Assembly: GCA_947630235.1 (NCBI GenBank)
Contig: CANRGN010000004.1
Coordinates: forward strand, 3,458-67,457
DNA from: an uncultured Clostridia bacterium
Lineage (GTDB): Bacteria > Bacillota > Clostridia > TANB77 > CAG-508
DNA: 64,000 bases
Reading direction: 5' to 3'
Position 1 is the stretch's first letter; each line of letters opens with the position of its first letter. Below the pieces are notes generated by a model. The model ran no database searches. It saw only the letters and a list, made by a program, of their open reading frames with translations, and had not been told where the DNA came from. The translations under genes were made by a program, and so were the position numbers. This document shows, piece after piece, positions 4,834 to 64,000 of the stretch.

Positions 4834-5020
4834 ATTTATTTTTATTAAATACTTGTCTTTTTAGATAAATTATAATAGAATATAGAAAAAATTTAAGGTT
4901 TTTTTATTTAAATTATCACAAAATGAAGAGAACTTTTATAAAATAAAACTTAAAAATGACAAAAAAGAAATTTTAAAATTGTTATAGTTTTATATTATAA
5001 ATGTATTGAGGTGGTTAAGG

Positions 5021-5614
5021 ATGTTTCAAAGTAGTAGTAAAGAAGCAAGAGATACAAATGAAAATATTAATATAAAAGATATAACTAAAGAAATATTTAA
5101 AATTCAAAATATAATAATTTATATTCTAACATTTTTAATTTCAATGGTATCTATTAGAAATGAGGTATTACCATTTGGATTAGCAATTATTGCGGCATGT
5201 TTAGGAACTGAAATTCCAATTGCAATGGTATTTATCGTTTCTGGATTATCAACAATTATTTTTCAAGGGCTAAGTGGCTTCGGAGTATTTTTCTTTACAT
5301 GTTTAATTTACTTTTTAATGATATTAATTCTAAAGCCAAAATATTCAATAGAAGAAAGAAACGAAATTGTAAAAACAGGTGGAAAGTTATTTTGGTCTTG
5401 TTTTATAGTTAGTTTCATAAATAATATTAGAGGATCATTTTTAATTTATAATTTATTTATGGGAATAATTATCTCTGTATTAACATATTGTTTCTATAAA
5501 ATTTTTGTTAATGGAATTGTTGTTATTAGAGATTTTGGAACAAAAAAAGCGTATACTTTAGAAGAACTTATACGGAGCATCTATAATTATAGGAATTGCA
5601 AGTACAGCTTTTAA
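5021..5614 (+). CDS. spoIIE: Stage II sporulation protein E, N-terminal membrane fragment (frameshifted gene, part 1)
   Basis: Polytopic hydrophobic N-terminus. RBS gaggtgg lies 6 nt before ATG 5021. The frame ends at 5612-5614, but the hydrophobic sequence continues in the +1 frame. Confidence 0.75.
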   Translation: MFQSSSKEARDTNENINIKDITKEIFKIQNIIIYILTFLISMVSIRNEVLPFGLAIIAACLGTEIPIAMVFIVSGLSTIIFQGLSGFGVFFFTCLIYFLMILILKPKYSIEERNEIVKTGGKLFWSCFIVSFINNIRGSFLIYNLFMGIIISVLTYCFYKIFVNGIVVIRDFGTKKAYTLEELIRSIYNYRNCKYSF

Positions 5615-5618
5615 TGGG

Positions 5619-7439
5619 TTGAATATTTTAGGTGGATTAAGCATTAGTAATATAATTATAATTTTCTTAATTTTATTATTAGGTTGGAAAAATGGAATGT
5701 TACTTGGAGGAGTATCTGGTGTTGCAATTGGATTATCTGTTGGAATAATAGGCTTTGTTACTCCAATTCAAATTGCTGGTTTTGCCGTTGCTGGAATTTT
5801 AGCTGGTTTCTTAAATAGATTTGGAAAAATAGGTGTAATTATTGGTTTTATACTAGGAAATGGTATTTTAACATATATGTATAGTGGAAATATAGAAACA
5901 ATAATATATTTTAGAGAAATATTTATTGCTTCAATTGGACTTTTACTTGTTCCTTCAAATATAAAAATAGATTTAGAAGATATTATTGGAAATTATAAAT
6001 TAATTACTGATGAAGGAGAATATAGGCTTGAAGCAGATGCAGAAGTAAAAACTAAATTAAATGTAGTAGCAGAAGCATTAAATGAAATTACAAAAAAATA
6101 TACATCAGTTGAAGAAGAAGTTTCAATTGAAAATACAAAAGATAATTTTATTGAAATTTTAGAATCTAATATAGAAGATAAAAAAAATAATATTTTTTAT
6201 GATGAAATTTATAAAAATATAGATAAAATTGATGATGATATTTTTTATGTTCTACAACAAAAAGAAATAATTTTAGAGCAAGATTTAATAGAAATTTTTA
6301 GATTGCACAATAATTTTATTGCTAATCAATATGAATATATAAAAGAAGATTTAAAAGAAGTTGTTAATATAATTAATAAATCTTATAAAATGAATAATAT
6401 AGATAATGCAAAACAAGAGCAAAAACAGGCTCAAAACATCAAAATTGTTAATGAACTAGAAAATGTAAAAAAAATAATTTCTGATGTAGCGAAGAATGTG
6501 GAACAAGAAAAATCACCTGAAATTAAAAAATTGGAAAAAGAAATAGGAATTGTTTTATTAAAAAAGAATTTAGATATTGAAGGAGTTAGATATAAAAAAA
6601 TACAAAATGGTAAGATTGTTATTGACATAAAATTAAAATATACAGATGAATTAAGACAAAGAGAAAAAATTGTTAATATTTCTGATGCCATTTCAAAAAT
6701 TGTTGGAAAAAAAGTTATATTTCAAAAAGATAGAAGAAATATTAAAAATGATATATATATTCAAACCTATTCTACAGAGGACAAATTTACTATTCAAATT
6801 GGAAAGGCTAAATTAACAAAAGATGATAGTAATTTTTCAGGAGATAGTAATTTAGATTTAAAGCTTGATGATGGAAAATATTTACTTGCTATTAGTGACG
6901 GAATGGGAACAGGGTTAAATGCTAGAGAGACAAGCTCTACAGTATTAAAAGTGTTAAAAAACTTTTTATCTGCAGGTTTTGAAAAAGAGAAAACTTTAGA
7001 ACTTATAAATTCTAGTTTAAATTTAGATTTAAATGAGGAAATGTATGCGAGTCTTGATTTAGCGATTTTTGATTTATATGAAGGAAACCTATATAGTATA
7101 AAAAATGGATCTAGTAATACTTATATTAAGAATAAAAAAAATATTCAAATTTTAAAATCAAATCAAATGCCTTTAGGTATTGTAAATCAAATTACTTTAT
7201 CTGAAACATTGGTTAAATTAGTAGATGGAGATATAATAGTATTAGCGAGTGATGGCATAATTGAATCAAGTGATATATCTAAAAATGATTGGTTAGAAGA
7301 ATTTCTAAAAAATGCTACAACAAATAATGTTCAAAAATTGGCTGATTTAATATTAGCTGAAGCCATTGATAATAGCTACGGAGTAGCACATGATGATATG
7401 ACAGTTATTGTTGCAAAAATTATGAAAAAAAATAAATAA
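5619..7439 (+). CDS. spoIIE: Stage II sporulation protein E, remaining TM segments plus PP2C phosphatase domain (frameshifted gene, part 2; this frame is open from 5562)
   Basis: C-terminal PP2C motifs LAISDGMGTG, VLASDGIIES and HDDMTVIVAKI. TM helices precede a central coiled region, the typical SpoIIE architecture. Confidence 0.85.
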   Translation: MNILGGLSISNIIIIFLILLLGWKNGMLLGGVSGVAIGLSVGIIGFVTPIQIAGFAVAGILAGFLNRFGKIGVIIGFILGNGILTYMYSGNIETIIYFREIFIASIGLLLVPSNIKIDLEDIIGNYKLITDEGEYRLEADAEVKTKLNVVAEALNEITKKYTSVEEEVSIENTKDNFIEILESNIEDKKNNIFYDEIYKNIDKIDDDIFYVLQQKEIILEQDLIEIFRLHNNFIANQYEYIKEDLKEVVNIINKSYKMNNIDNAKQEQKQAQNIKIVNELENVKKIISDVAKNVEQEKSPEIKKLEKEIGIVLLKKNLDIEGVRYKKIQNGKIVIDIKLKYTDELRQREKIVNISDAISKIVGKKVIFQKDRRNIKNDIYIQTYSTEDKFTIQIGKAKLTKDDSNFSGDSNLDLKLDDGKYLLAISDGMGTGLNARETSSTVLKVLKNFLSAGFEKEKTLELINSSLNLDLNEEMYASLDLAIFDLYEGNLYSIKNGSSNTYIKNKKNIQILKSNQMPLGIVNQITLSETLVKLVDGDIIVLASDGIIESSDISKNDWLEEFLKNATTNNVQKLADLILAEAIDNSYGVAHDDMTVIVAKIMKKNK

Positions 7440-13187: not shown

Positions 13188-13217
13188 GATGACTAGCACA
13201 AGTACTAGTCATCTTTT
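13188..13217 (+). terminator. Orphan intrinsic-terminator-like hairpin with no upstream + strand gene
   Basis: gatgactag-cacaagta-ctagtcatc followed by ttttatatt. Confidence 0.45.
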
Positions 13218-13402
13218 ATATTATTTTTATTACTTTCTAATACTATGATACTATATTTTATTTTGAAACTCAATTATTTATATACTAAAGTTTTAGGTTT
13301 TTATAGAGAATTAACATTATAAGTTAAATGTAATGAAAATTTAATAAAATTTTCAAAAATGTAGCCCCGTAAGTATTGATAAATAAACTTAAAATCAGGG
13401 TA

Positions 13403-13438
13403 TTAACAAACAAAGTTTTTTGTGGTATATGGTATAAT
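13403..13438 (+). promoter_or_regulatory. Sigma-A-type promoter of leader cassette A, with spacing disturbed by a 7-bp tandem duplication
   Basis: TTAACA (13403-08) is paired with TGgTATAAT (13433-38) at 24-nt spacing, or with TATATG (13426-31) at 17 nt. The paralogous copy at 62365-62393 has a clean 17-nt spacing. Confidence 0.55.
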
Positions 13439-13549
13439 AAAAGAGTAGGAATGTATTTTTTATAAAAAACTATAATTTTTTATTCTATATATAATGTTTT
13501 AAAGCAAAAAGCATAACAAAAGAAAATTTAGAAATACAAAGGAGAAATA

Positions 13550-13624
13550 ATGGAGTTAAAAATAATAATGGTTGAATCCCTTGTAGCTGTATATAGGGAT
13601 TGTTTTAAAATTAAAAGAATATAA
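13550..13624 (+). CDS. Leader mini-ORF A (24 aa, MELKIIMVESLVAVYRDCFKIKRI)
   Basis: RBS aaaggag lies 5 nt before the ATG. The ORF position, RBS and the E(S/T)LVAV core are shared with the copy at 62507. Its stop lies 7 nt before the terminator stem. Confidence 0.4.
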   Translation: MELKIIMVESLVAVYRDCFKIKRI

Positions 13625-13631
13625 AAATTCT

Positions 13632-13660
13632 GGTTAGGCAATATTGTCTAGCCTATTTTT
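13632..13660 (+). terminator. Intrinsic terminator of leader cassette A
   Basis: ggttaggc-aatatt-gtctagcc (8 bp including G-U pairs) followed by tattttt. It is conserved in cassette B. Confidence 0.65.
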
Positions 13661-13828
13661 GATGTTTTGAAATTTTAATTCATTATAGAAAAGCAATTCC
13701 ATTATATTACTTTGTTATTACAAATTGAAAATGATTATAAGAAGACTTAAAAATAGAGTTTTATTTTTATCAAGGGAAAGTCGAATTTTGTCAAATATAT
13801 AATTCAGATAAAAAGGAGGGAATATGAG

Positions 13829-14494
13829 ATGAAAAAGGTATTTTTAATAATATTTACGATATTGGTAGTTATTACACTTGTTTTTACTTTAAGAGAATGT
13901 AAAAACATTTTTGCATTTTATACTACGAATGATAAAATTACTAATTTTTTTAATGTAGGCCAAATAAGTGCAGAAGTAGAAGAACCAAATTATCAAGATA
14001 ATAAAGTTGTAAGACCAGGAGACGAAGTTGTAAAAGATCCAATATTATCTAATAATGGAAAAGTAGATAGTTATATAAGAGCTCAGGTATATGTCCCTAT
14101 ATCAGAAGAGATTAAATATGTAGATGAAAATGAAGAAATAGATGAGATAGAAAAAGAAATTGAGTTAGTATCTTATGATTTAAATGAAGGATGGGTTAAA
14201 GTAGAAGATAATAATTTTACTGGTTCATATGAAGATGGAAATGGCAATAAATATCATGTATATACCTATAAATATGTTAAGGATAATTTAGAAAAAATAA
14301 TAAAACCTGGAGAAAAAATAGAAAAGCCAGTATTTGATAAAGTGAAAATAATTAATTATTTAGATATGGATAAAGCAATAAATATAAAATTACATGTAAC
14401 AGCAATTGCAGTACAAGCAGAAGGAGGAACAGCAGAAGAAATGTGGTCATACTATATTAAGCAAAATGGAACTGGAATTGAAGGAGTGAAATAG
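13829..14494 (+). CDS. TasA/camelysin-like secreted protein with a SipW-cognate-type signal peptide
   Basis: RBS aaaggaggg. The N-terminus has an h-region plus FAFYTTND. The motif VVRPGDEVVKDPILSNNGKVDSYIRAQVYVP is shared by all six paralogues. Confidence 0.75.
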   Translation: MKKVFLIIFTILVVITLVFTLRECKNIFAFYTTNDKITNFFNVGQISAEVEEPNYQDNKVVRPGDEVVKDPILSNNGKVDSYIRAQVYVPISEEIKYVDENEEIDEIEKEIELVSYDLNEGWVKVEDNNFTGSYEDGNGNKYHVYTYKYVKDNLEKIIKPGEKIEKPVFDKVKIINYLDMDKAINIKLHVTAIAVQAEGGTAEEMWSYYIKQNGTGIEGVK

Positions 14495-15016
14495 ATGAAG
14501 AATAAAAATAAAATAAAAATTGTAATTATTGTAGCTATTATAATAATATTTATGTCTTTGGGAGTATATGGATATTTTATATATAAGAAGTCCGTAACGA
14601 ATAATATGGTTTTAGGGTATAACGATATAGAAGTTAATGAAAAGTATCAGCCACCATTGAAAATAGAAAAAGGTACAAGTTTTCAAAAAGAGCCTACTGT
14701 TACAAATAATGGAAATGTGGATTGTTATGTAAGGGTAAAATCTTTGGTATCAGATAGTAGAGTGGAGGATGGTTTAAGTATAGATTATGATAAAGAGAAT
14801 TATAAATATAATGAAGAAGATGGATACTATTATTATCAAAAAGTATTAAAACCAGGAGATACAACGGAGCCGTTATTTACAACAGTAGAGATATTAGAAA
14901 AAGCAAGTGATGATGTATTAAATGGATTTGAAATATATGTATATGCAGAATCAGTCCAAACAGTAAAAGATATGAATATGGAGCAAGTATGGAATTATTT
15001 TAATAAAACAGAGTAA
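14495..15016 (+). CDS. TasA/camelysin-like secreted protein (paralogue 2)
   Basis: The ATG abuts the previous stop (tagATG). Signal-anchor plus GYFIY, then EPTVTNNGNVDCYVRVK. Confidence 0.7.
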   Translation: MKNKNKIKIVIIVAIIIIFMSLGVYGYFIYKKSVTNNMVLGYNDIEVNEKYQPPLKIEKGTSFQKEPTVTNNGNVDCYVRVKSLVSDSRVEDGLSIDYDKENYKYNEEDGYYYYQKVLKPGDTTEPLFTTVEILEKASDDVLNGFEIYVYAESVQTVKDMNMEQVWNYFNKTE

Positions 15017-15053
15017 TAAAAAAATATTACAAAAGAAGGGAGGAAGAATACAT

Positions 15054-18000
15054 ATGAAAAATATAAAAGAAAAAATAAATAAAATTATTTCATTAGTATT
15101 AGTAATATTAATAATATTCACTTCGCTTCCATGGGATGTAATTGCGTATGATGATGGATTACTAAACAATAATATAGAGAAAGTAGAGAATTCAGATATA
15201 TTAAATATAAAAGAAGAGAGTTTACTAGATGCGGAAAATGAAAATGTAAATTCAAATATGATAGATATAGAGAATGATAGTGTCGATTTGAATTTGGCAG
15301 ATAAAGAGGTAGCAAATGATAATTCAAATTTATTAGATAAAGAGAATGTAACAGAAAATGATAATTTAAATACAAATATCATAGATGATGAACTATCTAA
15401 CGAAACAATCGAAAATAGCAATACAAATAATCAAGACACTAACCTAGAGGATAAAAATATAATAGATTCAGAAAATATATCAGCTAGCAACGAAAATAAC
15501 AATATAAGTGAAATGCCATCTGATAATATAGATGAAATTTTAAAATTAAACGTGGCTCAAAGTTCAAATACTGCTGATATACCAAATGAAATGGCAGGCA
15601 CAGGAGATGGATTTAAAGTACAATTACGTTGGGGTGGAACAACTGCCCCTAAGTATACGTGGAATTCAGAAAAAAGTGAGAAAAGAGTAATAAAGTTAAC
15701 ATTTTATTATCAAAATGAGGTAGCAAAAAAATCTTATAAAAAAGATGAAATAAAAGTAACTATACCTGGAATAGGAAAATTAAATAGATCAAGTATAATT
15801 AAAGCAACAGATATAGCAGCAGATGTATATGGAGCAACTGAATTAAAAAGAGATTGGTCTTATCAATATAATTCACAAACTGATACATATACTTTTTTTA
15901 ATAATAAAGAAATAGAAGCAGGTTCAACATTTAATGGTTCATTTGAAATGTTATGGCAATTTAGTTCAAGAGAATGCGTAAATGGATATGTTCAAAATTT
16001 AAAAGCCACATTAATAGATGGTGATAAAACTGTAGAAACACAAGAATTAACTTTGAATTATACATCAAAAAGAGATGAGTTTAATATAACAAAAACAGCA
16101 AAATCAATAACAAGTGCTGATGGTTTAAGTAAGTATGTAGAAGAAGGAAAAACTGTATCTGATTATGCATGGGTTCAATATACTTTTAAATATGGTTTAA
16201 AAAATGAATATTCAAGAGCTTTAAAAACAAGATATTTTATTGATACATTACCAGAAGGATGTGTTATTGCAAAAGATACAAATGTTATAAAAAATGAAGA
16301 TAAAACTGTAAGTTATAGAATAGATGAAAGTTCAGTATTAGAAGGTTCTACAAGAGAATATTCTATCATTGTTGGATATCCAGAAAGTTATATGGAGCGA
16401 ACAATGGATAATACAGTTTACTTATATGGAACATATAAAGATGAAACAGAGAATGTTTTACTAGATAAAAATACAGTTTCAGTACAACTTGAAAAAATAC
16501 AAGATCAATTAGTAGGAATTGTTCCAGGAAAAAATATGACTCCAGATTCAGTATATAAGGAAGCTTTAAATGGAGATATTAATTTTTCAGCTAGTTTAAC
16601 TGCAACTTCAACAGTGAGTTCAGAAAATAATGAGGAATATACTATAACTATAACAGATGATTTATTAGAAATATATAATGAGACAGATGATGAAGAAAAA
16701 TATACAAGATTAGATGATGACGAATATAAATTTACAAGTGTAACAGTTCCAGGAAAAAATAATTTTGTAAATGCAAATGGATATACAATTGCAGATGGAA
16801 ATTATACAGTAACTATAAAAGCATTATATAAAGATAATGTGAGTACAAGAGGTTTAGATAAATATGAAGAAGTATATAAAGGAGCTTGGGGAAAAGATAG
16901 TATAACTCAAACACTTGAAAAAGAAGCAGTAGCAATAAGAGTAGAGGTAAGTGGATTATTAGAAAGTATAAAATCTTTTAATGTAACTGTAAAAGGTGTT
17001 ATAAATGTAAGCGAAAATGTTAAAAATTCAGTATATTCAAATCCAAAACAAATTATAAACTATGATTTTGCAGAGTTATTGGATAAAGATGGAAAGTCAT
17101 TATCATATGAAATAGATTATTCAGATAAAAGAATAGAAGAAATAGATTCAAAAATTTACGGAAGAAAAGTATCAAGAAATAAAGATGTAATACAAATAAA
17201 AGAATATACTCCAGCTCCAGGAACATACTCAGCTCATGCTGATATAGAACCATTTAGAGTAGATGAAAATGTAGAGTATTTTACAACAACATTAAATTAT
17301 TCTGTTTCTGTAAATAACAAAGATAAAAAAGAAATAAAAGAAGTAGAAATATATGGAGTAACAGGAAAAGATGAATTAGAAACACTAATTGAAAAATTAA
17401 AATTAACTTATAGTGGTTTATCATTTAAAAATGCACTATCTAGTGATGTTGATATGATAGATTATTTAGAAGAAAAAGCAACTATAAATAAAAATGGAAA
17501 AGAAATATCAATAAAATTTGATTTTTCAGATAATCCAATTGTTTCAACTAATTTTTCATTAGGCTATAAAGTAGATGCAAGATTAAATTATGAAGAATAT
17601 TATAATTCAACAGATCCAACTTATAATATAACTACATATGCTTATTTAGATAATGGTGGTTTAAATGCTCAAAGTACAGGAACTTATAATTCAAAAATTA
17701 TGTCAACAGCTGTAGACTCAGAAAGTATATTATTAGCTTTAGCATCACATCAACAACTAATAAAAATGGTAAAAACAAAATACAGTGGAGAATTTGTACA
17801 AGAAGATGCGGTATCACCAGTGGATTCAGAATATACATATAGATTAAAATTAAGGAATGGTTATAATACTTTAGAGAAAACTGAATTTGTGGATATATTA
17901 GAGCATGCAGAATTAACAGTGGTTGACGGAGAAAATCCATATAAAGAATCAGAATGGTATGGAAAATTTAAAAATGTAGATACAAGTTATATTGAGTCTA

Positions 18001-21000
18001 AGAATTTAGTACCACAAGTTTATTATGCTAATTCAACTAATCCAAGTGAAAGTGACTGGAACCTAATGACCAAAAATGAAAATGGTATTTGGACAGCGGA
18101 AAATCAAGATGTAAAAGCAGTAAAAGTAAAAATAGAATCAGGTATTGCAGAAAATTCAATTGTATATGTAGATATTAATATGACATCTCCAAAAAATACA
18201 GAAGTAGATAAGAAAACATATAATACATATACAATATCTTGCGAAGCTGTAGATTTATATACAGGATTGAAATCAACATATATGAAAAATTTACCAAGTA
18301 ATGTTGTAGAGGTACGTTTAGTAGAAAAGGAATATAACTTAGTAATTACCAAAACAGATGCTACAAGTGGAAAAAAACTTGCAGGTGCAGTATTTGCAAT
18401 TTATGATGAAGATAAAGAAATAAAATTAGGAAATATTACAGGGATACTTGGAGATACAGTTATAAAAGGTTTAAAAGAAGGAACATATACAATAAAAGAA
18501 AAAGTAACACCATTAGGATATGAAACAATAGATGATTATACATTAACAATAAAAGATGGAAAGTATACATTAAAATGTGGAGAGAAAGTGTTACAAAGTG
18601 AAGTTCTAATAGATTTACAAGAAACTATACCAACAATTTCTATAATTATAGAAAATCACAAAAAAACTGGAAGTATAAAAATACATAAAATAGATGAATA
18701 TCTAACTTCAGAAAAAGAAGAAGTTCCATTAGAAGGAATTCAATTTGATTTATTGACAACAGATGGCAAGGTAATATATACAGATACAACAGATGAAAAT
18801 GGATATATTACTTTTCAAAATTTAGAATGGGGAAATACATATATAGTAAAAGAGAAAGAAAAACAAAACGGATATAAATTAGCATTAGAAAATGTATATT
18901 TAAGTAGATTAGTAATAGATAAAGAAGTTGATATAAAAAACATTAGGGAGACAGGCAGTGTAACACTTGTTAAACAAGATGAGTTAGATGAATCAATAAA
19001 ATTAGCGGGTGCAAAATATAAATTATATGCAGAAAAAGATATTTATGATAAGGACGGAAATATTTTGTATAATCAAGGTGATTACATACAAGAAGCAATA
19101 ACTAACGAACAAGGTGAAGTAACGTTTGATGAATTAATTTGGGGAGATTATTATTTACAAGAAAGCGAAACTGTATATGGTTATGACTTATCTGAAGAAA
19201 AATATTCTTTCACAATTAGTGCAGAAAATGTGGAAAACTCAATTCAATTTACAGAGAAAGAAAAAAGAAGTAAAGCTAAATTACAATTGATAAAAGTAGA
19301 CGAAGATGGTAGCTTTTTACCAGGAGCAGAATTTGGATTGTTTAAAGGAAATGGAGATGAAGATGGCGATCAGATAATAAATAGAAATGTGGAAACTGGG
19401 GAAGAAGAGTTAACATTCACATCTCCAGAAGCAACAGTGGATACATACGGATGGAAACAAAATGATGATGGAACATGGCAGAGTGAAAATTATAAAAAAA
19501 GTAATTCTACTGCAACAATGGTATCAAATGAATTTACATTAAAGTATGATGGAAAGATAAGTTTTGATTGGTCAGTATCATCTCAAGGAGTATCAAATGA
19601 TTACGTATATTATACAATTATAAGCGAAGATATTGAGAAATCAATAGGAGGAGAAGAAACTAAAATAGGAGGAACAACAAGAGGATATGGATATGACTCA
19701 TTAACGTATGATAGAGTAGTACTACAACTAGAAAAAGGAACATACAAAATAAAATTCATCTATAAAAAAGATGATTCATCAGATAGTTCGTTAGATAGTG
19801 CATATGTAAAAAATGCAAAAGTATCATATGAACAAATAGAAGAATTTCCAAATATTACGGATTCAAATGGATTGTTAAATATAGAAGGATTGGAATGGGG
19901 AGAATACTATATACAAGAAATAAAACCACCACAGGGGTATGTAATAGATAATGCAAAATATAGATTTTCAGTAAATAGGGAAACATTTAAAGATGGTCAT
20001 AAAGCTGTAACTACAGTATCAAATGTGATGACAGGTGAACAGATATCAAAAATAAAAAATACTAGAAAAAGGGGAAAAGCAACTCTAATAAAATATAGAT
20101 ATGATGAAGAAGGAAATGAAACAACAGAAGCATTAGAAGGAGCTGTATATGAGTTATATTCAGCAGATGGAAAAATAGTAAATACACAAACAGAAAATGG
20201 AGAAGCAGTAACTGAACATACAACGAATGAAGAGGGAAAAATAACAGTAGATAATCTAGATTGGGGAAGTTACTATTTCCAAGAAAAACAAGCACCGGAA
20301 GGATATAGTATATCTGATAAAAAGATAGCATTTGTAGTAAATGGTAAAAATGTAGATTTTGAACAACAATTGGTAGCATATGATAAACAAGAATCAGGAG
20401 AAATAAAAATAAACAAAACAATAAGTGCAGAAAGCATATATAATGGACATGGAAATGCAACATTTATATTCAAAATAGTAGGAAAAGATAAAAATGGTAT
20501 AGAAAAAATTGTACAATATAGAACAGTAACATTTACAGAACTAGATTTAGAAAATATTGATGAACATGGAAATATAACAAAAACTATAACAATGCAGGAT
20601 ATACAAGCATACACATACGAAATAACAGAGGAAGCAAATTATCGATATGAATTAGATGTAATAACACCTGGAAAAAATGCAAGTGTGGATGGTAACAAAG
20701 GAATAATAGATTTATCACAAGTTACAGAAAAAAAAGAGGGAGAAATAACTTTTTCAAATAACAAAAATAATAATAGCTTATTATCAGATAATGGATTAAT
20801 AACAAATTCAGTACAAAGTCAATATTACTTAATTGGTATATCTGCCGAACCAAAGAAAGATAATTATGAAGTTGGAAATGAGTTAACAGCTGAGGATTTT
20901 ATATATACACTATACTATTCAGGAGGACAAGAAGAAGTAAAAGAATTAAGAGAAGGAATAACTTTTAATGGAAAATCTACGTATTCAGAAGAACAAATAG

Positions 21001-23132
21001 GAAGCTATATAACCAAAATAGAATATACATTAGCTGGAAGAAAATATGAAACAGAAACGATAACTAATTGGATAATGCCAAATGATTATTTTACATATAA
21101 AATGGTAAGTAACAAAGAAAATACGATAGTAATAACAGGAATAAATGAAAAATATATATCACCAGAGATATTGTATATACCAGGTGAATATAATGGATAT
21201 AGGGTGAAAAGAATAGGATATAATTCTGTTAATTCAGGTGATAGTAATAATGGTAAATTTAAAAATATAGATAATGTAATATCAATAGAAATATCAGAAG
21301 GTATAGAAGAGATAGGAGCATATACATTTTTTAATTATTCAAAAATTCAAAAAGTTAATTTTCCATATACAATAACATATATAGGAAAACAAGCATTTTA
21401 TAATTGTAGTAAATTAGAAAGTATAGATTTGAGTGAAACACAAATAACAACTATAGGAGATGGTGCATTTAGTTCTTGTAGTAATTTAGAAAGCATAGAT
21501 TTGAGCGAAACACCACTAACAACTATAGGAAGCTCATTTAGTTCTTGTAGAAAATTAGAAAGTATAGATTTAAGTAAAACCCAATTAACAACTATAGGAA
21601 GTAATGCATTTTATAATTGTAGTGGATTATCAAATATAGATTTACCAAATAGTGTAACCAGTATAGGAAATACAGCATTTCGTGATTGTAGTAAATTAGA
21701 AAGAATAGATTTGAGTAAAACCCAAGTAACAACTATAGGAAGTTCTGCATTCGAATCATGCAATAAATTAAAAAGTGTAGGTGAGATACCAAATAGTTTA
21801 GAAAGCATTGGTAGTCGAGCATTTAGAAGAAGTGGATTGCAAGAGATAGATTTAAGCAATTGCAAAGTAACAAAATTAGAAGGTAGTATGTATGATTATG
21901 GTAATCTGTATGGTGTTTTTTCTGAATGTAAGAGTCTAGAGAAAGTAAAGTTACCTAAGAATTTAACTATAATAGGTAATTCTACATTTGGAAGTTGTAG
22001 TAATTTAACTAGTGTATATATATATAATAATGTAATAAGAATAGATGCAAATGCATTTTATGGATGTAGTAGCTTAACAAGTATAGAAATACCAAATAGT
22101 GTAACAACTATAGGAGATTATGCTTTTAGAGGATGCAGTGAATTATTAGGTATAGAACTACCAGATAGTGTGACAAGCATAGGAAATTCTGTATTTAATG
22201 GATGTAGTAATTTATCAAATATAAATGTAGTAGAAGAAAGTAAATATTATATTAGTGTAGATGGAATATTATATGATAAAGAAATGACAACGTTAATACT
22301 GTATCCTGGAGGAAAAATAGATAAAACTGAATTTTCGATACCAAGTAGTGTAACAACTATAGTAGATTCTGCATTTTATGGTTGTAGTAGCTTAACAAGT
22401 ATAAAAGTTCCGAATAGTGTAACAAGTATAGGAGCTTATGCATTTTATAAGTGTAGTGTTTTAGATAGTATGGATTTAAGTGAAACACATATAACAAGTA
22501 TAAGTAATAATTCATTCGAAAGTTGTAGTAAACTATCAATAGTAAAGTTACCTGATGGAGTAATAAGTATAGGCTCTGATGCATTCGAAAGTTGTAGTAA
22601 ATTATTAAGTATAGAAATACCAAATAGTGTAACAAGTATAGGAACAGATGCATTTTTTAATTGTAGTAGCTTAGAAAGTATTGATTTAAGTAAAACGAAG
22701 ATAACAAGTATAGCAACAAGGGCTTTTGAGTGGTGTAGAAAATTAAAAAGTATAGAACTACCAAGTAGCGTAATAAGTATAGGAAATTCTGCATTTGATG
22801 GTTGTACAAATTTAGAAAGTATAGATTTAAGTAAAACAAAGATAACAAGTATAGGAAGTTCTACATTTTCTGGATGTAGTAATTTAGTAAGTATAGATTT
22901 AAGTAAAACAAAGATAACGAGTATAGAAACTTCTACATTTTATAGTTGTAAAAATTTAGCAAGTATAGAAATCCCAAATAGTGTAACAAGTATAGGAAAT
23001 TTTGCATTTAATAGTTGTAATAACTTAACAACAATAAAATTCTACGGAACAAAAGAAGCATTTGAAGCAATCACTGTAGGTTCAGATAATACTCCTTTCA
23101 CTAGTGCACAAGTAGAATATATCTCAGAATAA
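15054..23132 (+). CDS. Giant (2692 aa) secreted adhesin: Asn/Asp/Glu-rich linker, several Cna-B/SpaA-type domains, and a C-terminal BspA/TpLRR-type leucine-rich repeat array
   Basis: RBS gaagggagg. The N-terminal signal is IISLVLVILIIFTSLPWDVIAYDD. Cna-B units include NLVITKTDATSGKKLAGAVFAIYD...GTYTIKEKVTPLGYE and GSVTLVKQDE...WGDYYLQESETVYGYDL. There are many (about 30) repeats of roughly 23 aa like IPNSVTSIGNxAFxGCSSLxSIDL. No LPxTG/SPxTG signal is present. Confidence 0.9.
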   Translation: MKNIKEKINKIISLVLVILIIFTSLPWDVIAYDDGLLNNNIEKVENSDILNIKEESLLDAENENVNSNMIDIENDSVDLNLADKEVANDNSNLLDKENVTENDNLNTNIIDDELSNETIENSNTNNQDTNLEDKNIIDSENISASNENNNISEMPSDNIDEILKLNVAQSSNTADIPNEMAGTGDGFKVQLRWGGTTAPKYTWNSEKSEKRVIKLTFYYQNEVAKKSYKKDEIKVTIPGIGKLNRSSIIKATDIAADVYGATELKRDWSYQYNSQTDTYTFFNNKEIEAGSTFNGSFEMLWQFSSRECVNGYVQNLKATLIDGDKTVETQELTLNYTSKRDEFNITKTAKSITSADGLSKYVEEGKTVSDYAWVQYTFKYGLKNEYSRALKTRYFIDTLPEGCVIAKDTNVIKNEDKTVSYRIDESSVLEGSTREYSIIVGYPESYMERTMDNTVYLYGTYKDETENVLLDKNTVSVQLEKIQDQLVGIVPGKNMTPDSVYKEALNGDINFSASLTATSTVSSENNEEYTITITDDLLEIYNETDDEEKYTRLDDDEYKFTSVTVPGKNNFVNANGYTIADGNYTVTIKALYKDNVSTRGLDKYEEVYKGAWGKDSITQTLEKEAVAIRVEVSGLLESIKSFNVTVKGVINVSENVKNSVYSNPKQIINYDFAELLDKDGKSLSYEIDYSDKRIEEIDSKIYGRKVSRNKDVIQIKEYTPAPGTYSAHADIEPFRVDENVEYFTTTLNYSVSVNNKDKKEIKEVEIYGVTGKDELETLIEKLKLTYSGLSFKNALSSDVDMIDYLEEKATINKNGKEISIKFDFSDNPIVSTNFSLGYKVDARLNYEEYYNSTDPTYNITTYAYLDNGGLNAQSTGTYNSKIMSTAVDSESILLALASHQQLIKMVKTKYSGEFVQEDAVSPVDSEYTYRLKLRNGYNTLEKTEFVDILEHAELTVVDGENPYKESEWYGKFKNVDTSYIESKNLVPQVYYANSTNPSESDWNLMTKNENGIWTAENQDVKAVKVKIESGIAENSIVYVDINMTSPKNTEVDKKTYNTYTISCEAVDLYTGLKSTYMKNLPSNVVEVRLVEKEYNLVITKTDATSGKKLAGAVFAIYDEDKEIKLGNITGILGDTVIKGLKEGTYTIKEKVTPLGYETIDDYTLTIKDGKYTLKCGEKVLQSEVLIDLQETIPTISIIIENHKKTGSIKIHKIDEYLTSEKEEVPLEGIQFDLLTTDGKVIYTDTTDENGYITFQNLEWGNTYIVKEKEKQNGYKLALENVYLSRLVIDKEVDIKNIRETGSVTLVKQDELDESIKLAGAKYKLYAEKDIYDKDGNILYNQGDYIQEAITNEQGEVTFDELIWGDYYLQESETVYGYDLSEEKYSFTISAENVENSIQFTEKEKRSKAKLQLIKVDEDGSFLPGAEFGLFKGNGDEDGDQIINRNVETGEEELTFTSPEATVDTYGWKQNDDGTWQSENYKKSNSTATMVSNEFTLKYDGKISFDWSVSSQGVSNDYVYYTIISEDIEKSIGGEETKIGGTTRGYGYDSLTYDRVVLQLEKGTYKIKFIYKKDDSSDSSLDSAYVKNAKVSYEQIEEFPNITDSNGLLNIEGLEWGEYYIQEIKPPQGYVIDNAKYRFSVNRETFKDGHKAVTTVSNVMTGEQISKIKNTRKRGKATLIKYRYDEEGNETTEALEGAVYELYSADGKIVNTQTENGEAVTEHTTNEEGKITVDNLDWGSYYFQEKQAPEGYSISDKKIAFVVNGKNVDFEQQLVAYDKQESGEIKINKTISAESIYNGHGNATFIFKIVGKDKNGIEKIVQYRTVTFTELDLENIDEHGNITKTITMQDIQAYTYEITEEANYRYELDVITPGKNASVDGNKGIIDLSQVTEKKEGEITFSNNKNNNSLLSDNGLITNSVQSQYYLIGISAEPKKDNYEVGNELTAEDFIYTLYYSGGQEEVKELREGITFNGKSTYSEEQIGSYITKIEYTLAGRKYETETITNWIMPNDYFTYKMVSNKENTIVITGINEKYISPEILYIPGEYNGYRVKRIGYNSVNSGDSNNGKFKNIDNVISIEISEGIEEIGAYTFFNYSKIQKVNFPYTITYIGKQAFYNCSKLESIDLSETQITTIGDGAFSSCSNLESIDLSETPLTTIGSSFSSCRKLESIDLSKTQLTTIGSNAFYNCSGLSNIDLPNSVTSIGNTAFRDCSKLERIDLSKTQVTTIGSSAFESCNKLKSVGEIPNSLESIGSRAFRRSGLQEIDLSNCKVTKLEGSMYDYGNLYGVFSECKSLEKVKLPKNLTIIGNSTFGSCSNLTSVYIYNNVIRIDANAFYGCSSLTSIEIPNSVTTIGDYAFRGCSELLGIELPDSVTSIGNSVFNGCSNLSNINVVEESKYYISVDGILYDKEMTTLILYPGGKIDKTEFSIPSSVTTIVDSAFYGCSSLTSIKVPNSVTSIGAYAFYKCSVLDSMDLSETHITSISNNSFESCSKLSIVKLPDGVISIGSDAFESCSKLLSIEIPNSVTSIGTDAFFNCSSLESIDLSKTKITSIATRAFEWCRKLKSIELPSSVISIGNSAFDGCTNLESIDLSKTKITSIGSSTFSGCSNLVSIDLSKTKITSIETSTFYSCKNLASIEIPNSVTSIGNFAFNSCNNLTTIKFYGTKEAFEAITVGSDNTPFTSAQVEYISE
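21280..23040 (+). repeat. Coding tandem array of roughly 69-nt (23-aa) BspA-type LRR units inside the giant adhesin
   Basis: agtatagatttaagtaaaaca / ccaaatagtgtaacaagtatagga recur with a period of about 69 nt. Confidence 0.75.
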
Positions 23133-61866: not shown

Positions 61867-62364
61867 AATGCCTTTTGCGGAGCTATGTTCTTAGAGCATG
61901 GCTCTATTTTTCTTTTTATATAAAAACTATAAAGAAATATTATCAAATATATATATATATTTGTTCTAGATGGTAATTTATTTAGATTTCCTTCTTCTAA
62001 ATCTGTTTCTAAAATTTTTTCATGTGTATCATATAATTTAGGTGAACTAGAAATTGGAATTACTATTTTCAATTTTCTTTCTTCTATTTCATTTTTATTA
62101 TTCAAATTTCAGTATATGTATATAATAAAAACAAATATTCTTGAAAGTCAATAGGATTTTTTACATTTATATTGACGTTCCTTTGGCTACTTTTGATTAA
62201 TAAGGAAATTTTTAGTGCAATTTTTGAATTATGTTACAGAAATGTTACAAAAATACATATGAAAAATTGTGTAAACATAATAAGTAAAATGTAATGAAAA
62301 AATAATAAAATGGCATAAAAAGATGAATCCGTAAGCCTATATAATTTAATGAAAAATAAGGGTA

Positions 62365-62393
62365 TTAACAAACAAAGTTTTTTGTGGTATAAT
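62365..62393 (+). promoter_or_regulatory. Sigma-A promoter of leader cassette B
   Basis: TTAACA, 17 nt, then TGgTATAAT. The surrounding sequence gggtattaacaaacaaagttttttgtggtat is identical to cassette A. Confidence 0.65.
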
Positions 62394-62506
62394 AAAAGAG
62401 TAAGATAAGATTTTTTATAAAAATTGATAATATTTTACTTTATATATAACAAGTAAAATTAAAATTGCATAACAAAAGAAAAATATAGAAATACAAAGGA
62501 GAAAAA

Positions 62507-62608
<102 letters not shown>

Positions 62609-62643
62609 TACCCTTTAAAAGAAGAAAAAAATATAAAAATTTA

Positions 62644-62670
62644 GGTTAGGCAATTTTGTCTAGCTTTTTT
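62644..62670 (+). terminator. Intrinsic terminator of leader cassette B
   Basis: ggttaggc-aatttt-gtctagc(t) followed by a T6 run. It is homologous to the terminator at 13632. Confidence 0.65.
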
Positions 62671-62950
62671 GTGATGTTTAAAAATATCAAAATATAAAGA
62701 AAAATATAGTGATGATAAAAATATAGCTAAGGATTGAGATTCGATTATTAGATATAGATAGCTATTTTTTATTCGATATGGAATTTGTTTACTAAAATAT
62801 CGGAATTTTAAATAATCAACTTATTTGAGTTTTTAATGTATATAGATTATGTTTATACTCTTTTGCTATTTATGAAAGTGTATATGTAAAGGTTTATAGG
62901 TAAAGCCATTATTAAAAACCTAAATATGTTATACAAGGATTGGTGATAAT

Positions 62951-64000
62951 ATGAAAAAGAACAGTAGAAAAGTATTAATAGTAACATGGATTTTAGTGGT
63001 GATAGTTATATTAGTTGTATGTGTAGTGGTAGTAATGAAAAATAATCAATGGTTTGGAAGAGAAGAAGTAACTAAAACTGCTAATGGGGGAAAGGCAGAT
63101 ATGTTGGCGGATACATATGAAGATGCGACTGAAAATAAAAAATCTAACCCAGATGCAGAAACAAAGAAAAAAATAATGGAAGAATTATCAAAAGGATGGG
63201 ATTATAGTAAAGTAACAGCTGTTGAAGTAAAAATTAGTAGTAATAATACTGATGGAAGTGAAAGTAATGTAGTAAACAGTGAGAAAAATGGTGAAACAGA
63301 AACAATGAAAATTCCTGTTCCAGTAGGATATACAGCATCACAAATAGAAGGAGAGAATACAGTTGATGGCGGATTTGTAATATATGAAGGAAGCGAATCT
63401 GTAACGTCTGATAATAAAGAAACAGCACAAAAAGAAAGAAACCAATGGGTATGGGTGCCAGTATATAATCCAAGTGATATGTATGGAGTAGATAGTAATG
63501 GAAAAATGTGTGGAAAATTATATAATTTTGATAGCAATGGAAGAACTAATGATAATTGGTCTGAGAAAGAGGGAAAAATAAATATAACAAGTAAAACTGG
63601 TGATAGAGAGCCTGACTTGTTAAGTAGTTATGATAAAGATGATTATCTATCAAGATATTTATCTGAAACAGATAAAGAACAGTTAGGTAAAGAATTAAAA
63701 AATACATTTGAAAAAACAATAGAAAGCATAAAAAAATATGGTGGCTTTTATATAGGGAGATATGAAACAGGTGGATTAAATGGAACAGCAAAGGTAGTAA
63801 AAGGAGATACAGATATATCAAGTCAAACATGGTATACAATGTATGAAAAATGTAAAGCATTAAAAGGTGAGAATAGAAATGTAGAAACAAGTATGATATG
63901 GGGATGCCAATGGGATAGAACATTGCAGTGGCTTGTGGATACGAAAACTAAAGAATATAAAGACGTAGGCTTAGATTCTATTGATTGGGGAAATTTTTTA
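62951..64000 (+). CDS. Membrane-anchored secreted protein, 3' end cut by the window edge; tentatively FGE-sulfatase-like domain
   Basis: ATG 62951, then 350 codons with no stop to the window end. There is an N-terminal TM helix. Motifs IPVPVGY, NQWVWVPV, GGFYIGRYE and MIWGCQWDRTLQWL are reminiscent of SUMF1/FGE-type domains. The ORF is absent from the ORF track only because it has no stop. Confidence 0.65.
   Translation, partial: MKKNSRKVLIVTWILVVIVILVVCVVVVMKNNQWFGREEVTKTANGGKADMLADTYEDATENKKSNPDAETKKKIMEELSKGWDYSKVTAVEVKISSNNTDGSESNVVNSEKNGETETMKIPVPVGYTASQIEGENTVDGGFVIYEGSESVTSDNKETAQKERNQWVWVPVYNPSDMYGVDSNGKMCGKLYNFDSNGRTNDNWSEKEGKINITSKTGDREPDLLSSYDKDDYLSRYLSETDKEQLGKELKNTFEKTIESIKKYGGFYIGRYETGGLNGTAKVVKGDTDISSQTWYTMYEKCKALKGENRNVETSMIWGCQWDRTLQWLVDTKTKEYKDVGLDSIDWGNFL

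Follow-up and report, generated by a model that had tools for sequence, protein, structure and literature searches.

The stretch of DNA analysed here, called the window throughout, comprises 64,000 nucleotides (nt) of an uncultured Clostridia bacterium and carries two copies of a short module made up of a promoter, a leader with a small open reading frame (ORF) and an intrinsic terminator, each standing in front of genes for surface proteins. Judging from its sequence, the module is a member of a large family in low-GC gut Firmicutes and phages, whose hallmarks are an 18-nt motif, a (CA)n tract and a short ORF with a Shine-Dalgarno (SD) sequence. The original prediction, made from the letters of the window, described both copies but missed that half of the leader ORF in the second one (copy B) is a (CA)22 tract, and it is this tract which probably flips the gene downstream of copy B on and off at random. 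The modules and the genes that follow them are arranged as listed below.

13316-13690, forward strand: copy A of the promoter/leader ORF/terminator module
13829-23132, forward strand: operon after copy A, encoding camelysin/TasA-like, BsaA-like and leucine-rich repeat (LRR)/SpaA surface proteins
13829-14494, forward strand: camelysin/TasA-like gene (PF12389, 28.4 bits, cut-off 22.5)
14495-15016, forward strand: BsaA-like gene of the same operon
15054-23132, forward strand: gene of the LRR/SpaA surface protein (2692 amino acids) of the same operon
62276-62700, forward strand: copy B of the promoter/leader ORF/terminator module
62951-64000, forward strand: gene of an N-terminally anchored protein after copy B, extending beyond the window end (349 amino acids inside the window)

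Two paralogous copies of one module

Alignment of 13280-13720, on the side of copy A, with 62240-62740, on the side of copy B, gave 80% column identity on the same strand and confirmed the two same-orientation paralogous regions with long identical blocks that had been proposed. Identity reaches 100% in the blocks of promoter, SD and terminator, and the intervening sequence has diverged. A 28-nt promoter block, GGGTATTAACAAACAAAGTTTTTTGTGG, occurs exactly twice in the window (at 13398 and 62360) and in none of 100 shuffles; the terminator sequence GGTTAGGCAATWTTGTCTAGC likewise has exactly two occurrences, at 13632 and 62644, and block searches found no third copy of the module within the 64 kb. 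Metagenome contigs of the same strain (L002 and L004) end inside the identical promoter block (window ~13411-13456), which is consistent with the block being a genomic repeat. The parts of copy A are the following.

13326-13339 and 13367-13373, forward strand: upstream boxes AAATGTAATGAAAA and CCGTAAG, identical in copy B, a candidate upstream promoter or operator
13398-13450, forward strand: promoter block, with -35 TTAACA (13403-13408) and extended -10 TGgTATAAT (13430-13438)
13445-13549, forward strand: leader of ~105 nt, AT-rich and unstructured (fold z-score -1.24, no Rfam match), with SD GGAG at 13541-13544
13550-13624, forward strand: leader ORF of 24 amino acids, MELKIIMVESLVAVYRDCFKIKRI, with stop TAA 7 nt before the terminator stem
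13574-13591, forward strand: decayed motif GAATCCCTTGTAGCTGTA, followed by TATAGG where the copy B type has the CA tract
13632-13660, forward strand: intrinsic terminator, stem 13632-13653 (9 bp with G-U pairs, strand-specific), then T-tract

Copy B is laid out in the same order.

62287-62300 and 62329-62335, forward strand: upstream boxes AAATGTAATGAAAA and CCGTAAG, from the alignment to copy A
62360-62393, forward strand: promoter block, TTAACA (62365-70), 17 nt, TGgTATAAT (-10 at 62388-93), with 11/12 matches and TG
62400-62506, forward strand: leader of ~107 nt (fold z-score -0.55, no Rfam match), with SD GGAG at 62498-62501
62507-62608, forward strand: leader ORF in the present frame, 33 amino acids, MMKKMNFNIQTPETLVAV(HT)7H, with stop TAA (62606-62608) 35 nt before the stem
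62543-62560, forward strand: 18-nt motif GAAACCCTTGTGGCTGTA, directly 5' of the CA tract
62561-62604, forward strand: hypervariable (CA)22 tract within the ORF
62647-62649, forward strand: TAG stop of the long frame with n = 0 mod 3 (...LIPFKRRKKYKNLG*), inside the 5' arm of the terminator
62643-62672, forward strand: intrinsic terminator, stem 62643-62666 and T-run

Most of the anatomy given in the original prediction stands. The leaders, put at about 110 nt, are close to that length; the strong ribosome-binding site corresponds to the GGAG placed 5 nt before the ATG; the mini-ORFs do have 24 and 33 codons; and a terminator is present in each copy, the number of such intrinsic terminator sites expected in shuffled sequence being 0.0-0.2. 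The distance to the downstream operon, given as about 170-280 nt, is 169 nt past the T-tract of copy A and ~275-285 nt past that of copy B. The near-consensus extended -10 promoter claimed for both holds for copy B. Copy A retains the extended -10 only, because a 7-nt duplication (TGGTATA, 13423-13436) displaces the -35 box to 24 nt from the -10. The upstream boxes have counterparts in related loci: AAATGTAAT..CCGTA(A/G)G is found upstream of sipW in L020 (3230-3280) and L016 (2628-2670), and AAATGTAAT alone in L019 (at 3262), so that these boxes may be a common promoter or operator of sipW/TasA-like operons across species. Behind the L020 boxes, right before sipW, stands a short terminator that has a T10 run.

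The CA tract and the reading frames of copy B

Since the repeat unit has two nucleotides, the number of units (n) determines which of three frames the leader ORF follows beyond the tract, and the three frames end at very different distances from the terminator.

n = 0 mod 3: peptide ends ...(HT)nLIPFKRRKKYKNLG; stop TAG at 62647-62649, in the 5' arm of the hairpin
n = 1 mod 3 (present allele, n = 22): peptide ends (HT)7H; stop TAA 35 nt before the stem
n = 2 mod 3: peptide ends TNTL; stop 25 nt before the stem

The tract is polymorphic within the species. Another sample (L017) has (CA)5 vs (CA)22 in the window, and the 400 nt upstream of the tract as well as the neighbouring ATPase are 100% identical between the two. 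Tract lengths were read from short-read assemblies; the (CA)5 allele is far below what k-mer collapse would yield, and it carries linked single-nucleotide polymorphisms. Its flank differs in having AAA where copy B has TAA, and two of its three frames reach the stem. Copy A is unable to switch because its motif has decayed and it has no tract, and only copy B of the two window copies can do so. In a strain related at 92% (L005) copy A is also without a tract, and the ORF has been kept through an in-frame 3-nt deletion and a synonymous change.

A family of CA modules in gut Firmicutes and phages

A scan with the pattern GGCTGTA(CA)7, which forces part of the motif and at least seven CA units and so biases the sample, found at least 120 metagenome loci and 56 viral contigs in IMG/VR. 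High-GC matches resemble ordinary microsatellites and were set aside. The low-GC loci, of which there are 137 among the matches listed (the scope of all further counts of metagenome loci, allele groups and classes), have an SD, an ATG, 5-20 codons, the sequence TGAAA[G/C]CC[T/G]TTG-N-GGCTGTA and (CA)7-25. The 18-nt motif is common to 58 non-redundant low-GC metagenome loci and all 56 viral loci; every position is conserved save one free N, and there is no 3-nt periodicity. In most loci the ORF enters the tract in frame 0 (E-S/T-L-x-A-V-HT..), in others in frame 2 (MNKTAKALRLY-TH.. and ..LKPAWLY-TH..) or frame 1 (MNKPANRCGC-TH..), as a result of one-nucleotide indels between ATG and motif. Conservation ahead of the tract is at the level of DNA and not of peptide, and the E(S/T)LVAV core, first taken for a conserved peptide, is actually a nucleotide motif translated in three frames across loci.

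Tract length varies throughout the family. Allele groups were defined by near-identical flanks (≤4 mismatches in 65 nt) and at least two members, and n differs among the members in 18 of 20 such groups; one phage allele ranges from n = 10 to 17 over 11 contigs. Across the low-GC loci n mod 3 is split 35/40/46. Alleles that are alike except in tract length, with all three frames about equally filled, are the signature of slipped-strand phase variation. The same variation is seen in front of a counterpart of the operon after copy A: in L006, whose TasA-like protein is 65% identical to that of the window, a small SD-bearing ORF (ATG-27 nt-(CA)11, then a 21-bp terminator) precedes sipW and the TasA-like gene. 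In nine further samples with the identical TasA-like protein the contigs start in or at the tract, and over L006-L015 n is 10, 11, at least 12 or at least 13, with no change in that protein. Querying protein sequences with the long-frame peptide brought up two additional members, in one sample but at two genomic places, whose sole difference is (HT)3 vs (HT)5.

The loci fall into three classes according to what follows the tract.

Class I, 13 of 70 non-redundant loci: the frame with n = 0 mod 3 runs into a protein of 150-606 amino acids
Class IIa, 24 non-redundant loci, including window copy B: short ORF, then intrinsic terminator
Class IIb, most phage loci: no terminator; SD and ATG of the next gene 30-40 nt past the tract

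In class I (for example L028, L066, L112 and L121) the tract lies within the coding sequence of the protein itself; these proteins have a pilin-like hydrophobic anchor (..KKGITLVALVITI..), and their alleles are about equally often ON and OFF. Of the 24 class IIa loci, 17 have a single frame that extends to the hairpin, the other two frames stopping 23-82 nt before it, and at several loci the next gene starts 19-62 nt past the T-tract, which leaves no room for a promoter of its own and means transcription by read-through only. Members of class IIa precede SipW-type signal peptidases (L006, L051) and anchored proteins whose FGE-sulfatase domains pass the Pfam cut-off (L056, L118). The latter bear on the protein after copy B, which had been called FGE-like: Pfam recognises no FGE domain in its 349 amino acids inside the window, and its homologues do pass the PF03781 cut-off. 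It is homologous to the protein of L118 (E=6e-15), itself one of those passing, and to the class I protein of L121 (E=2e-8), and homologues of this protein carry the CA module or have it in front. For the first gene after copy A the predicted TasA-like product is upheld by the Pfam match given above.

The spacing in class IIb suggests translational coupling. In phages the module lies between tail-fibre/minor-tail genes and XhlA/holin/lysin genes, and the phage-type locus matched no cultured phage in GenBank/INPHARED. The viral genomes concerned (L145-L200, IMG/VR) are ~33-39 kb long, and the module precedes a small gene (MIPQ..., 109-164 amino acids); in L164 the module is followed by five small genes that are paralogues of one another (MSKSIK...). 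L059 (3837-5950) has two tandem paralogous surface-protein genes, and a separate copy of the module, with (CA)18, forms the start of each gene.

The motif ranges over Firmicute chromosomes, ~35-kb phage genomes and Bacteroidota-like loci. The last of these (L043, L079 and L119; GC 0.41-0.49) have Bacteroidetes-type promoter motifs and lipoprotein genes, with the motif GAAACCCGCGTGGCTGTA, (CA)12-21 and a terminator hairpin upstream of the lipoprotein gene. A 4-bp AGCC/GGCT mini-hairpin was rejected as the cause of the motif's conservation, as it is lost in the ACCC and ACCG variants. We entertain, tentatively and with more doubt than conviction, the idea that the motif is itself a functional DNA or RNA element which together with (CA)n forms a portable, horizontally spread 'phase-variation cassette'. 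In such a cassette the motif might govern how often the tract slips or bring in a dedicated factor, and the unit can serve as a protein N-terminus, an attenuator leader or a translationally coupled upstream ORF.

An exact 22-mer of the promoter block had no match in the GTDB genome collection, nor had the exact terminator 21-mer in the metagenome collection, so that these species-specific blocks are not shared outside the window organism. With an nhmmer profile of both copies, other loci matched in the SD-ORF-CA part only and not in promoter or leader, and a concatenated peptide query matched only the L017 peptide. Two loci, L021 and L022, were uninformative, one contig being too short and the other having a group II intron inserted upstream; the intron, with reverse transcriptase and structured RNA, occupies 1-2460 of L022 directly upstream of sipW.

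A candidate slippage switch acting on termination

What has been observed is how the modules are built, how the tract varies in length, where each frame ends relative to the hairpin, and that the layout recurs at many loci. On this basis we hold it reasonably probable that paralogous promoter/leader ORF/terminator modules gate transcription into surface-protein genes, copy B being switched by CA slippage and copy A being fixed. Replication slippage would add or remove one CA unit and thereby shift the reading frame of the leader. In copy B, only an allele with n = 0 mod 3 would let the ribosome read to the TAG in the 5' arm of the terminator, where its presence would block the hairpin and allow RNA polymerase to transcribe on into the 62951 gene (ON). 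In the other two kinds of allele, n = 1 and n = 2 mod 3, the ORF would end 35 and 25 nt upstream, respectively, the hairpin would form and transcription would stop (OFF or low). The window allele (n = 22) is read as OFF, and a single-unit slippage would turn it ON. We infer that translation into the hairpin relieves termination as it does in Streptococcus gallolyticus pil1. Being hypervariable, the tract would make the module a stochastic (phase-variable) switch and not a sensor. Of the functions offered in the original prediction, a leader-peptide attenuator fits best, given the SD and ATG, the unstructured leader and the frame-dependent stop in the terminator arm.

The main argument for action in cis is that both window arrangements, the module before a TasA-type operon and the module before an FGE-type anchored protein, recur independently elsewhere. 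The account is at its weakest for copy A, which appears to be a leader and terminator locked in one state and unable to switch. Its stop is 7 nt from the stem, so that a ribosome terminating there would overlie part of the stem, and the consequence may be constitutive partial read-through into the TasA-like operon.

Several points weigh against this account. Copy A, the site of the original finding, has no tract, and we can only infer its regulatory role. The gaps between terminator and downstream gene in the window are long (169 nt and ~275-285 nt) and make independent promoters possible. Weak promoter-like sites lie upstream of 13829, together with two Spo0A-box-like sequences (AGTCGAA-TTT-TGTCAAA, 13779-13797) directly upstream of the TasA-like gene, which may therefore have its own control; the second site is a perfect TGTCGAA in L005 (~262-280), and TGTCGAA also stands upstream of sipW in L021 and L019. 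Ribosome and RNA polymerase are considered to be only loosely coupled in Bacillus, and any ribosome-dependent antitermination would be weakened by this. Finally, seven of the 24 class IIa loci are without the one-frame geometry, the terminators of the related loci were called by a simple purpose-written script, and the loci are a sample biased by the forced GGCTGTA and seven or more CA units of the pattern.

The modules could instead be stand-alone genes for small proteins, their His-Thr-rich peptides (metal-binding or signalling, for example) being functional, and phase-variable in copy B, and the terminator having no effect in cis. Each unit does come with a promoter and a terminator of its own, in addition to a strong SD and an ATG, the gaps to the next gene are long in the window, and the ORF is kept in L005 with an in-frame indel. 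We consider this unlikely all the same: ahead of the tract it is the DNA that is conserved, and its translation in three frames leaves no conserved peptide, the C-terminal frames differ even among copies A, B and L017, and the leader peptides match no Pfam or NCBIfam family. Many relatives, moreover, have the next gene 19-62 nt past the terminator or the module fused to the protein.

It is similarly improbable that the modules are decayed relics, leftover 5' ends of genes that used to have the CA module in frame as in class I, now detached from any gene and kept alike only through gene conversion or because the duplication is recent. Divergence between the copies has spared the promoter, SD and terminator blocks, which are wholly identical; the long-frame stop falls within the terminator, an overlap found at 17 independent loci; and the same layout precedes the same gene families elsewhere. 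These observations tell against the evidence in favour of decay, namely that class I fusions to homologous proteins exist, that copy A has lost the tract and that copy B has a premature TAA where L017 has AAA.

Any frame of the CA tract encodes alternating His and Thr, and this codon run is part of a leader ORF with a terminator behind it, an arrangement that brings to mind a classical amino-acid attenuator, like those of the his and thr leaders, in which stalling at His (CAC) or Thr (ACA) codons reports the supply of either. This is very improbable, as no alternative antiterminator structure is predicted, the downstream genes belong to surface, secretion and phage-tail functions and not to amino-acid biosynthesis, tract length is hypervariable with two of the three frames ending right after the tract, and copy A has no run of His/Thr codons.

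A small RNA, another option of the original prediction, or a riboswitch-like leader acting via RNA structure or base-pairing is hardly credible: the non-coding blocks are conserved between copies A and B and there is a UCCC-type motif in the ORF region, but a scan with the Rfam covariance models gave no match at gathering score or E≤1 (the sole match, at 16.5 bits, is a chance match far below the gathering score), in agreement with the earlier statement that no known riboswitch, T-box or leader class is recognisable, the leaders fold no better than shuffles, the mini-hairpin of the motif is not kept in variants, and the leader blocks are not conserved outside the window species. Three further identities were rejected: a type I toxin-antitoxin system (peptide B is polar, there is no hydrophobic peptide, and no antisense promoter is common to both copies), a precursor of a ribosomally synthesised and post-translationally modified peptide or of a quorum-sensing peptide (no maturase, regulator or transporter nearby and no conserved peptide), and, for the window copies, translational phase variation by simple sequence repeats of the oipA/opa type, as the window ORFs end before the downstream genes.

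Genomic surroundings and host

The presence of SpoIIE, rpoB and rpoC genes in the window marks it as chromosomal DNA of a spore-forming Firmicute. The organism has been seen only in low-coverage ENA gut-type metagenome assemblies, and its closest GTDB relatives are metagenome-assembled genomes of uncultured Clostridia. Its spoIIE is apparently split, ORFs 5006-5614 and 5619-7439 covering consecutive parts of the SpoIIE_N model; this could reflect a frameshift, a stop codon or a sequencing error. A second SipW/TasA-like cluster lies at 33090-42362, with a strong promoter at 33090-33118 and the TasA-like cluster proper at 33482-42362 (a 386-amino-acid protein, a 216-amino-acid TasA-like protein, an S26 peptidase and surface proteins of 1606 and 598 amino acids); despite the strong promoter, neither a leader ORF nor a terminator was found in front of it.

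Some 130 nt upstream of copy A, at 13188-13213, GATGACTAGCACAAGTACTAGTCATC forms a strong hairpin that resembles a terminator in both directions and is flanked by T-runs on either side. It coincides with no obvious gene end, and GGAGGTGA lies just before it. About 330 nt upstream of copy B an (AT)7 tract (61947-61960) sits inside a doubtful minus-strand ORF of 88 amino acids, and this tract is also present in L017.

Implications

Literature searches found no paper on the CA/His-Thr module or on repeat-based switching of sipW/TasA-type loci in Clostridia, and repeat-based switches in this class are, as far as we found, undescribed. The phase-variable systems charted to date in gut commensals are chiefly invertible promoters and methylation switches. 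If the proposed mechanism is true, many uncultured gut Firmicutes and phages gain a simple stochastic on/off control over genes that include SipW/TasA-like biofilm-fibre operons, large adhesins and phage tail-region genes, in other words over the surfaces met by the host immune system and by phages. A streptococcal mechanism would thereby be extended to a broad and recognisable sequence family that is searchable in metagenomes, with an ON/OFF state that is readable from reads. The family also holds a warning for annotation, since assemblies break or mis-call genes at CA tracts.

Comparison with known systems

The combination of a leader ORF that holds a hypermutable repeat with a terminator behind it is a principle known from one species, S. 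gallolyticus. At its pil1 locus expression is low when the short leader stops 39 bp short of the hairpin (Danne et al. 2014, PMC3894217), and high with frameshifted long leaders that end within or after the hairpin, as the ribosome prevents hairpin formation (PMC3894217). Switching has been demonstrated experimentally there; here it is predicted from sequence. The likeness to pil1/pil3 extends to the promoter, the SD-ATG leader ORF with a hypermutable repeat, the intrinsic terminator and the surface-fibre operon, and both are found in Gram-positive gut organisms. Copy B, unlike copy A, also has a repeat unit that is not divisible by three and whose copy number varies between strains. In both systems the short frames stop ~25-39 nt before the hairpin and the long frame ends in or past it. 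The repeat is GCAGA (5 nt) in S. gallolyticus but CA (2 nt) here, and there is no sequence homology, so that the two are analogues and not homologues. The module described here also differs in its conserved 18-nt flanking motif, in being multi-copy within genomes and spread over many species and phages, and in its downstream genes, which encode SipW/TasA-type fibre operons, anchored FGE-domain proteins and phage tail-region proteins instead of sortase pili.

In pyrBI-type attenuation of enterobacteria the leader ORF extends into the attenuator hairpin, a close ribosome prevents the terminator from forming, and UTP is sensed via polymerase pausing. The CA module shares the leader ORF that reaches into the hairpin; the variable in its case is the reading frame set by a DNA repeat.

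Pentanucleotide tracts near the start codon switch the frame of the Neisseria opa genes. CT repeats near the start codon are reported to do the same for the surface-protein gene oipA of Helicobacter pylori (PMC10564699). The class I relatives of the CA family work in exactly this way. In the window, however, the tract belongs to an ORF that lies apart from the gene, upstream of it and ahead of a terminator, and the switch must act on transcription or polarity and not on the protein's own frame.

In Campylobacter phages hypermutable poly-G tracts in tail-region genes give rise to phenotypic diversity. The 56 viral contigs that carry the CA module by tail-fibre genes are reminiscent of this system, from which they differ in the type of repeat and in the upstream mini-ORF.

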